IMG/VR virus record: IMGVR_UViG_2778261559_000026
Reading direction: 5' to 3' (one strand)
Source of the DNA: a virus
Lineage: Duplodnaviria > Heunggongvirae > Uroviricota > Caudoviricetes
Length of the DNA stretch: 31,691 nt
Numbering within the stretch: the first letter of the stretch is position 1; each line of letters starts with the position of its first letter. Below, piece after piece: positions 1 to 3,000 of this stretch. The position numbers are program-made.

Positions 1-3000
1 TTACGTTGTACTGATTGAGTAACGCCACCAGTTGTGCTTTTTTTGCGGCGTTAAGGTAAATCCGAGTGGATTCTGGCTATTAGTCATCAGCCAGCACGCT
101 TTCACCGGATACTCCTGCAACGCCAGTTCCAACGCCTGAAGATCTATCCCTTCTTTAACATCCGTCGCCACCGATAACGCTTTCAGCCGTAGCCGTTCCA
201 GCGCCTGCAACGCGCCATAGAAACAAGGATTCTCTACTATCACCCAATCGCCCGGTTCAGTTACCGCTTGCAAACTGAGGTTTAATGCCTCTAACGCCCC
301 GGCAGTAATGACAATTTCATCAGGAGAAATGGTGATGCCCTGTAAGGCATAGCGACGAGCAATAGCCTGACGCAGTTCTGCGTTTCCTGGCGGTAAGTTT
401 TCAATCACGCTCATCGCCGTGGCGGTTTTGCTTACCTGCGCCAGCGAGCGGTTTAGTTGTTGGAGGGGGAAAAGTCGCGGGTCGGGAAAGGCCGAGGCAA
501 ACGGAACGACCGACGGATCGCGACTGGCCTGCAACATATCAAAAATATAAGTGTTGATATCGACTGCTTCATCTCGAGTGACTGGAATGACTGGCGCTTT
601 CGGCATTTTTATTGCCTGTGGCGCAACGTAATAACCCGACTGCGGTCGTGCGATAATATATCCCTGACTTTCGAGCAACTGATAGGCATGGCTGACAGTC
701 ATAAAGCTCATGCCTGAAAGCGCCACCTGGTCACGCAACGAAGGCAAACGATCGCCGGGTTGCCAGATACCCGACGCAATCTGCTCGCGTAATTGTTCTG
801 CAAGCTGCTGGTATTTTTTCATTATCGAATCGTAATTATGTGCAGATGATTCGGCAGTCTATATCAGTTGTTAAAAATGACAACTTTTCGTTAACTGTAA
901 TTAAACCATCACCAGCGATAACTCTTTGCCAAGCGCCTTTGCCGCAAGCTGGACGGCGTCGATTTTTGTCGCATGGTGCAAGTTAAATAGGCGAGTAATC
1001 TCCTGTTTAGGTTTCACTAATATCATGTACCCACAATAACAAGAGGGGTACAACAATGAACATCGGTAAAGCAATCATCAACTACGCAGCGCGTCGCAAC
1101 ATGGACATTACCTTGATTGACGATGAGACCGTGGCGTTCTGGGAAGCGGATAACGATTGTGAATGGATGTTCTCCTACATGATTGGTAATGATGGTTTCC
1201 TCCACTTTAAAGGCAATGTGTATCTGCCGCAGGATATTAAAGAAGAATTACCAGCGTGCATCGATACAGACAAGAAGCTGAAAGAAGTAATCAACTTTAT
1301 CGCTAAAGAGTTTATCAGCAAGAAGTAATGTCTAATTTGGCGGGTACTATTCCCGCCGATTTAAACGGAATACAGACAATGTTCAATATTATGATTCGTA
1401 AATTTGGTGAGATGACTTTCGAGAAAGCTGGTGTTGCTCGTACCGAAGAAGAAGCAATGGCCTTCGTTCTGGTAGCACTGAGATCATCACCTGAGATTAT
1501 CGACGCTGAATATGTTACGGCTGAGGGTGAGATTAAAGAGATTAAAGCGGTGGCTAAGGAATTAGGTGTTAAAGGTTTCCGTAAGCTGAGATTGACCCGT
1601 GAGACTTATGTAATTGGACAGCAAGGACAATACCTAGATGAGAATACCGTGATTGTTCTACTGAATAAGATTACCCGCTACGGTTGGAAGATTGAGCAAT
1701 ATAAAACGTGTTTCGAATTATACGAAAAAGGTTTGCTGGATACTCTGACCATCGTTCGCGCTTAATTAATTTCTAATTTGGTGGGTGTAATTCCCACCGC
1801 TTTTTAAACTGGAGAATCAAACATGTTAGCTTTTATCTCATTCGTGGGAGGTAGTCTCACAACTATGATTAGTCTTTCTTATCTTGTCGTTAGTATGGGG
1901 TGAGCAATGAAACAATTTCATGATGGCATTTCATCTAAGACATTCAAGAAAGAATATTCGCTGAGTATTAACTGGATTGATTTGATTGGTGCGGTTGTGT
2001 TTGGTCTGATTATTAGCATTAACTTTTAACGATATAAATATATCGTAATTCAAACAACAAGAGGAAATTCTACTATGAAAAAGATTATCGCTGGCATCGT
2101 TCTTACTATGGGTTTGGTTGGTACTGCTAATGCTAATACCTATTATGTGTGTAATTCCTACTTCGAACATAAAGGAGATGATACACACTACCTTCGTGAT
2201 GGCGACCGTTATTATCATGCACCGTCTGGCAAATACCGTGGTTTTATCGGTGTGAAAGTTCGCGTGAATGATGATAATAGTCAATTTGCTTTCAACGATC
2301 CGGTATATGATAAGACAATCAAAAGTCCTAAATTAAAAGAAGATAAGAACGAGAAAGAAGAATATTATGGTTCCGAAGATGGTAAATCCTACATCAAGTA
2401 TCTGCATTCTGTTGATGGCGCGCCTATATTTGATGTTAAAAAAGGTGATACGTCTTATTCCCTGATTAGCTGCCGTGAAATTCTTTAATCTTTAATCACC
2501 TAGCCCCTATCGTTATAATACGCGGTAGGGGCGTTTTTGTTTGGAAATGGTATGAAAACTAAACTGTATTCGTATATTCGCTTCTCGTCTATGCGTCAGA
2601 ATGATGGTTCGAGTTATGAACGACAAATCAGGATGGCTAGAGAGATTGCGGTAAAGTATGACCTTGAACTGGTAAATGATTATCAGGATCTGGGTGTATC
2701 TGCGTTTAAGGGTGCTAACTCCAAAACAGGGGCGCTATCTCGTTTCCTTGATGCAATAGGTAGATCCGTTCCTGTTGGTAGCTGGCTATTCATCGAAAAC
2801 TTGGACCGTTTATCCCGTGCCGATATTGTCAGTGCGCAGGAGTTATTCCTTTCAATCATCCGTAGGGGGATAACCATTGTTACTGGCATGGATAACAAGA
2901 TCTACTCGCTGGATACTGTTACCGCTAACCCGATGGACCTGATGTTCTCCATCCTTTTATTCATCCGTGGTAATGAGGAAAGCCAGACTAAGCGCAATCG

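Follow-up and report, generated by a model that had tools for sequence, protein, structure and literature searches.

What becomes of an antitoxin gene when a mobile element breaks it and supplies the cut end with a new ATG? This question is raised by the left end of IMG/VR virus record IMGVR_UViG_2778261559_000026, a 31,691-nucleotide stretch of Caudoviricetes DNA that was analyzed over its whole length and is called the window here. On its minus strand, an ATG reads in frame into the last 37 codons of hicB, which encodes the antitoxin of the chromosomal hicAB module in Escherichia coli, and the first-pass annotation suggested that a free-standing HicB DNA-binding fragment could be made from this frame. 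We conclude, with high probability, that positions 901-1044 are the left attachment site (attL) of a large-serine-recombinase prophage in hicB, that the ATG is accidental, and that the 3' remnant of hicB is a presumably silent piece of a pseudogene. The observations that carry this reading are the anatomy of the locus, the position of the crossover, the symmetry of the phage site, the domains of the integrase, the non-conservation of the ATG and the weakness of the expression signals.

The gene order in the window is ydcR, the hicB 3' piece, a 30.35-kb prophage (1015-31365) and the hicB 5' piece. In intact K-12 the order is hicA-hicB-ydcR, and the ends of the window keep it. The 3' remnant (901-1014, minus strand) consists of codons K102-V138 and the stop codon (903-901), and is the host (B) half of attL. 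Its protein is identical to residues 102-138 of K-12 HicB at 37/37 residues, and its DNA differs from K-12 at two positions, 946 and 976, both synonymous. In a base-by-base comparison with intact K-12 hicB, host identity stops at 1014. This confirms that the fragment was orphaned by the insertion of a mobile element, and also that the ATG, which lies beyond 1014, was supplied by that element, both of which had been proposed at first pass. In sister genomes PGAP/RefSeq labels the equivalent 3' stretch a hicB pseudogene ('incomplete; partial in the middle of a contig; missing N-terminus'), and both hicB pieces are flagged as pseudogenes by PGAP in sister lysogen records. The label covers the same stretch but is silent on the cause of the break; the att-site anatomy comes from the present analysis.

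The break can be placed to the base. When the two junctions are compared with attB of K-12, attL matches up to 1014 and attR from 31366, and the overlap is the dinucleotide TT only, which is non-palindromic. By junction alignment it lies at 1013-1014 in attL, where it opens the Lys102 codon as read on the minus strand, and at 31366-31367 in attR. A 2-bp non-palindromic crossover is a hallmark of serine recombinases. The attP site rebuilt from the two phage ends reads TTTAGTTATTTTGGGTTGACTACATTCGGG-TT-CACTAATATCATGTACCCACAATAACAAGA. Its P arm (31336-31365) is the phage half of attR, and its P' arm (1015-1044) holds the four element-supplied codons. The arms agree as an imperfect inverted repeat at 20/30 positions, against 9.8 +/- 2.4 in shuffles, of which 0/10,000 reach 20. 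The attB arms match each other at 8/30. A distal motif, ACCCA(C/A)AATAAC, is found in the attP arms, and the P' arm is kept in lysogens with different downstream genes. We predict that 1015-1044 is the P' half-site bound by the integrase.

The P' bases that adjoin the TT crossover (1015-1018) vary among sister prophages, with CAC, CCC, GCC and TCC being found. Several sister P' arms copy attB (GCCAA), and the P arm of the strain H2 prophage copies attB for 9 bp. It appears that the integrase tolerates, or that the phages drift at, the core-proximal positions.

A large serine recombinase (integrase) is encoded 1.5 kb inside the element (2552-3949, plus strand; 3'-truncated), as identified by Pfam and by a match to phrog_95 integrase. 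The Pfam matches are Resolvase (1.4e-14), Recombinase (9.7e-8) and Zn_ribbon_recom (3.2e-10). The left junction therefore has what characterizes the attL of a serine-recombinase prophage, namely a hybrid site with a 2-bp TT, an inverted repeat in attP and an encoded large serine recombinase. In about 35-38 complete genomes, elements that are related to this one but not identical with it sit at the same place in hicB, which may be taken as indirect support for recombination at this position.

We suggest the following course of events. A temperate phage would integrate into hicB by means of its large serine recombinase, which would cut attB and attP at the central TT and swap the half-sites. The last 37 hicB codons would be joined in this way to the P' arm, whereas codons 1-101 would end up next to the P arm, at the opposite end of the prophage. 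The 'MILV' that precedes the hicB codons would be P' arm bases read in the hicB frame, with an ATG that is there by accident and does not act as a start codon. The only plausible role of the remnant would be as a substrate for precise excision that rebuilds hicB, and this role is probably lost in the present copy because a 4.97-kb deletion truncates the integrase.

Elements of this type are familiar from other bacteria. For example, Listeria A118/phi10403S (in comK), Bacillus subtilis SPbeta (in spsM) and the skin element (in sigK) likewise have an integrase composed of Resolvase, Recombinase and zinc-ribbon domains. The likeness extends to the 2-bp non-palindromic crossover, the imperfect-repeat attP and a target inside a protein-coding gene, both halves of which are left as hybrid sites from which excision would rebuild the gene. 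The present element differs from these in that its target is hicB, its integrase is truncated in this copy and regulated excision is not shown here. Text searches of the literature gave no description of hicB or ydcQ as a prophage attachment site. The att site and the hicB target are a new case of something well known, and there is nothing unusual in the chimeric frame as a by-product. When the left 8 kb was compared as DNA with 50,697 phage records, a 63-nt match was the only result, and a search with the integrase protein against isolated phages gave nothing above about 30% identity. From these comparisons, no characterized or sequenced free phage appears to resemble the element. A paper on strain LF82 that turned up in the literature mentions only phage-borne hicAB.

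Could the chimeric frame be more than a by-product? The four element-supplied codons, ATG ATA TTA GTG (MILV; 1015-1026, minus strand, with the ATG at 1026-1024), are followed by 37 hicB codons, KPKQEITRLFNLHHATKIDAVQLAAKALGKELSLVMV, and by the stop at 903-901, which makes a frame of 41 codons in total. The list of open reading frames (ORFs) and the K-12 alignment bear out the first-pass reading of this ATG as in frame with the C-terminal hicB codons. The span that was given to the frame began at 903, and here a correction is needed: the frame itself stands, but on the minus strand the stop codon starts at 903, and the true low end is 901. The longest mechanical ORF over the junction is a 57-residue frame with a TTG start (901-1074, minus strand) that runs antisense across the beginning of the first phage gene and contains ...GYMILVKPKQEITRLFNLHHATKIDAVQLAAKALGKELSLVMV*.

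The in-frame ATG, which occupies positions 10-12 of the P' arm, is no more than the chance expectation. When mock junctions were made at every prophage position on both strands, 31% of them gave an in-frame ATG before the first upstream stop and 6% gave one within four codons; with ATG, GTG or TTG allowed, the fraction is 50%. As a candidate micro-protein, the 41-codon frame is unimportant; such chimeric frames arise in about one in three gene insertions. Nor is the start codon conserved in related loci. We sampled the attL junctions of 12 further complete genomes in which an element occupies this site; the ATG is kept at seven of these junctions and replaced by ATA or ATT at the other five (7 present, 5 absent, n = 12). 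The four element codons vary among these sister lysogens, reading MILG, MIFG, IILG or IIFG.

The product of the frame was compared with the architecture of HicB, for which the domain boundaries were taken from Pfam coordinates and two reviews (PMC11594946, PMC10865869). In K-12 HicB, Pfam places HicB_lk_antitox at residues 3-67 and the helix-turn-helix (HTH) family HTH_3 at 88-134 (profile positions 7-53, ungapped). The break at G101|K102 corresponds to HTH_3 profile position 20/21 of 55, and the fragment is without profile positions 7-20. In Xre-type domains, position 20/21 holds the glycine of the turn that links helix 2 with the recognition helix. On the basis of this alignment, the cut in hicB is predicted to fall at this turn. 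What the fragment retains is the recognition helix, the helix after it and the dimerizing strand at the C-terminus; it is without helices 1-2, which are the other half of the hydrophobic core. The N-terminal HicA-neutralizing domain (residues 3-67) is encoded at the opposite end of the prophage. The full 138-residue HicB is the antitoxin solved in PDB entries 6HPB/6HPC and 6U0I. It has a partial RNase H-like N-terminal domain that neutralizes HicA and a complete HTH, whereas the fragment, though it shares residues 102-138 identically, has neither this domain nor HTH helices 1-2. E. coli HicB binds DNA via its complete C-terminal HTH domain (PMC11594946; PMC10865869) and dimerizes through the strand after the HTH (PMC11594946).

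The 41-residue product has no Pfam family match at E<0.1, neither to HTH_3 nor to HicB_lk_antitox. In a single-sequence AlphaFold2 model it is one featureless helix with a pTM of 0.29, a low-confidence result that is weak evidence. We infer that the peptide would not fold. In addition, a functional HicB peptide is unlikely because there is no full-length HicB in the lysogen for it to cooperate with.

The expression signals at the junction were examined next to those of the phage genes. The best pairing with the anti-Shine-Dalgarno sequence (16S rRNA 3' end, within 20 nt upstream) is -3.7 kcal/mol for the chimeric ATG, a value that is equaled or beaten by 20% of all 1,073 ATGs in the window. 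Three of five phage gene starts tested (1056, 2075 and 30329) have -6.0 to -8.3 kcal/mol, with -8.3 at 1056; the other two, at 1328 and the integrase, have -2.2 and -4.1, and native hicB has -6.4 kcal/mol. An inverted repeat, GTACCC...GGGTAC, spans 1027-1050. On the plus strand it holds the AGAGGGG ribosome-binding site of the gene at 1056, and on the minus strand it forms a hairpin. The weak GGG beside the chimeric ATG is buried in this GUACCC/GGGUAC hairpin, and the minimum-free-energy fold pairs the AUG as well. Thus, the chimeric ATG does not qualify as a start codon with a usable ribosome-binding site.

For transcription, a consensus scan, which may miss weak or non-sigma-70 promoters, found no minus-strand sigma-70-like site of at least 9/12 in 1015-2000. 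A relaxed pattern scan of 1027-1800 gave four minus-strand matches of 8/12 and none better. The phage genes between 1056 and 3949 all lie on the plus strand and are transcribed away from the junction. On the minus strand, the late structural operon (23163->3785) is the sole strong transcription unit, and it should be silent in the lysogen. No RNA family turned up when the whole window was scanned against Rfam. We suggest that the 3' remnant is not expressed.

Several observations weigh against a silent remnant with an accidental ATG. The remnant has not decayed, as both of its differences from K-12 are synonymous, though a recent insertion explains this equally well. Upstream of the junction the frame continues for 20 codons before it closes, and the exact 57-residue ORF has been reported once by a gene caller, on a public draft contig (GCA_002286535.1 MRVY01000062.1). 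In the present deleted copy, the late operon (minus strand, 23163->3785) points toward the junction, and a scan of 700-2700, which did not extend to 2700-3785, gave no terminator-like site on the minus strand. Low-level or induction-dependent minus-strand transcription across 1030 may occur.

One alternative is that the remnant is transcribed, and perhaps translated, incidentally, either by pervasive antisense transcription or by read-through from the late operon on induction, to give an unstable and functionless peptide. The minus-strand late genes of the deleted copy do run antisense into the integrase and moron genes, with no terminator-like site in the scanned 700-2700 to stop them. However, a repressed lysogen does not transcribe the late operon, some 2.8 kb separate the last late gene from the junction downstream of it, and the translation signals are weak. 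We regard incidental expression as unlikely, and continue to favor an attL with an accidental ATG.

A second alternative starts from the other end of the prophage, where the first half of hicB is found. The right junction encodes a 109-residue protein (31341-31670, minus strand) made of HicB codons 1-101, eight phage codons (NPNVVNPK) and a phage stop. This product keeps Pfam HicB_lk_antitox and loses HTH_3 and the recognition helix. The exact 109-residue protein is indexed in 44 blocks of a public assembly collection, and we examined 24 contigs that carry it. In a single-sequence AlphaFold model, which is of low confidence, helices are found at 74-88 and 93-99, in agreement with a break at the turn. 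The product is likely expressed from the native hicAB promoters with its autoregulation lost. E. coli HicB represses promoter P2, the transcript of which yields HicB only. The truncated protein presumably neutralizes HicA, and lysogens would still neutralize the toxin but lose repression of P2. Natural class 1/2 HicBs of 60-100 residues are also without a DNA-binding domain (Gerdes 2024, PMC10865869). Like these 'small HicB' proteins, HicB1-101+8 keeps HicB_lk_antitox and is without a working DNA-binding domain; it differs from them in that it arose by phage insertion and not by descent, and in that it still has two orphan HTH helices. It could be argued on these grounds that this uncultured phage family targets the HTH turn, that lysogeny converts hicAB into a constitutive neutralizing domain devoid of DNA binding and so blunts a host toxin-antitoxin defense, and that excision restores the wild type, with the 3' remnant as the stored half of a switch. 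We consider this whole scheme quite improbable.

The toxin gene, which lies outside the window next to the right junction, was also inspected. Among 10 sampled lysogens, hicA is intact in five, has a 22-bp deletion in four and a 1-bp insertion in one. The allele with the 22-bp deletion is present at >=99% identity in about 801/4,256 complete genomes, irrespective of the prophage. We considered whether lysogeny selects for the loss of hicA and rejected these counts as evidence for it, because the deletion allele is widespread without regard to the prophage and the lysogens are not independent. The allele appears to be a lineage polymorphism, not something brought about by lysogeny.

The third alternative concerns relatives with an intact integrase, in which the two hicB halves would form a reversible switch ('active lysogeny'), with regulated excision rebuilding hicB and the remnant kept under selection. 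Serine-recombinase elements in comK, sigK and spsM act as comparable excision switches, and excision at the 2-bp core would restore hicB exactly. In addition, the remnant is undamaged in 12/12 sister lysogens, the one missense change among them being T to A in ETEC1717. Undamaged remnants are predicted equally by recent insertion, however, and we identified neither a recombination directionality factor nor a signal for regulated excision. Moreover, hicA is dead in half of the sampled lysogens, so that rebuilding hicB would be pointless there.

The window itself also speaks against such a switch, since its integrase is truncated and its lysis genes are deleted. The integrase is cut after about residue 426 of 559, as judged from the full-length 559-residue protein in strain H2 (WP_024233971.1), and homology ends at window position 3827. 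Here lies a deletion joint (3827-3834; L005 3098|8069) at which 4,970 bp have been lost relative to the intact 35-kb sister prophage of strain H2, fusing the integrase gene to the middle of the tail-tip gene. The deletion takes the 3' end of the integrase gene, the lysis region, including an endolysin-like metallohydrolase, and the C-terminal 675 residues of the tail-tip protein. The H2 annotation over the missing stretch lists six genes, one of them for the endolysin-like metallohydrolase, in addition to the tail-tip protein. The joint is found in none of the complete RefSeq E. coli genomes. The truncated integrase is presumably inactive, and this prophage copy can probably neither excise nor lyse its host. 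Because the deletion truncates the integrase, the hicB scar is probably permanent in its strain. Taken together, we hold active lysogeny to be very doubtful.

The weakest alternative is the one proposed at first pass, that a transcript from the element end is translated at the ATG (1026-1024) into a 41-residue free-standing HicB DNA-binding or regulatory fragment: it has in its favor the in-frame ATG, the open frame and the retained recognition helix and C-terminal strand used for dimerization by E. coli HicB (PMC11594946), but we find it extremely improbable and not supported by what the sequence encodes, because the frame, which begins at the HTH turn and lacks everything up to HTH_3 profile position 20 of 55, holds only about half of the HTH, matches no Pfam family, is modeled without a compact fold, has no promoter in the consensus scans and a weak, occluded Shine-Dalgarno site, and is without its ATG in 5/12 sisters.

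With the locus read as an attL, the prophage family can be placed in its population. Matches to hicB were found at 5,388 places in 5,350 complete E. coli genomes, which means that the gene is split into two separate pieces in at most ~38 of them. The right junction of phage and hicB recurs in 35 genomes, and the left 1.4 kb is shared by 22 genomes; other elements at this site share the P' arm only and then diverge, or carry insertion sequence (IS) elements. A 59-nt megablast across the junction gave 4 genomes and none of the known perfect matches, and is unreliable for counts; the junctions were sampled directly instead. About 1,100 complete E. coli genomes (e.g., UTI89 and LF82) match K-12 hicB only from nucleotide 179 onward. 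These genomes have a divergent or truncated 5' half of hicB and are without the prophage.

We think it worth recording that roughly 0.7% of complete E. coli genomes have a prophage of this serine-integrase family in hicB. It appears that the family always cuts the antitoxin between helix 2 and the recognition helix, by which neutralization would be kept and autoregulation lost. This would yield a naturally occurring separation-of-function allele in a toxin-antitoxin system that has been well studied, together with a defined attB/attP pair for a serine integrase of E. coli. Both could be useful. The value of the allele and of the att pair is independent of whether the 41-codon frame is expressed.

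On the host side of attL, ydcR (1-822, minus strand, the same strand as the hicB piece) encodes a GntR/aminotransferase-type regulator and is the downstream neighbor of hicB, as in K-12. The hicB-ydcR intergenic region (823-900, minus strand) is undisturbed by the insertion. It has two minus-strand promoter-like sites, 883->856 and 874->846, each with 9/12 in the consensus scan. Both are downstream of the hicB stop, and their position and consensus score would fit a promoter for ydcR.

Inside the element, the window also encodes a J-like tail-tip protein and a small terminase subunit, according to phrog matches. By comparison with the H2 prophage, there are in addition a gpA-type terminase, a portal protein, a major capsid protein, a tail tube protein and a Rha-family regulator. 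Between attL and the integrase, a block of small plus-strand genes extends over 1056-2488. The first prophage gene (1056-1328) encodes a 90-residue protein that matches phrog_6147 (E 2.7e-33), has no assigned function and is a hypothetical protein in sister genomes. The block also contains a gene for a 145-residue protein (phrog_14908) with no assigned function, two tiny hydrophobic ORFs, and a gene for a 137-residue protein with a signal-peptide-like N-terminus, likewise of unassigned function. In some sister elements, the block is swapped for other genes or for IS elements. There are only 41 bp from the junction to the first start codon, and the block is thus without an obvious promoter of its own in the prophage state. 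Just inside the right end, a plus-strand gene (30329-31108) encodes a secreted protein of the LprI family (lysozyme-inhibitor-like), with matches to Pfam LprI (E 1e-4) and phrog_14799 (E 1.6e-109). This is a possible lysogenic-conversion gene.

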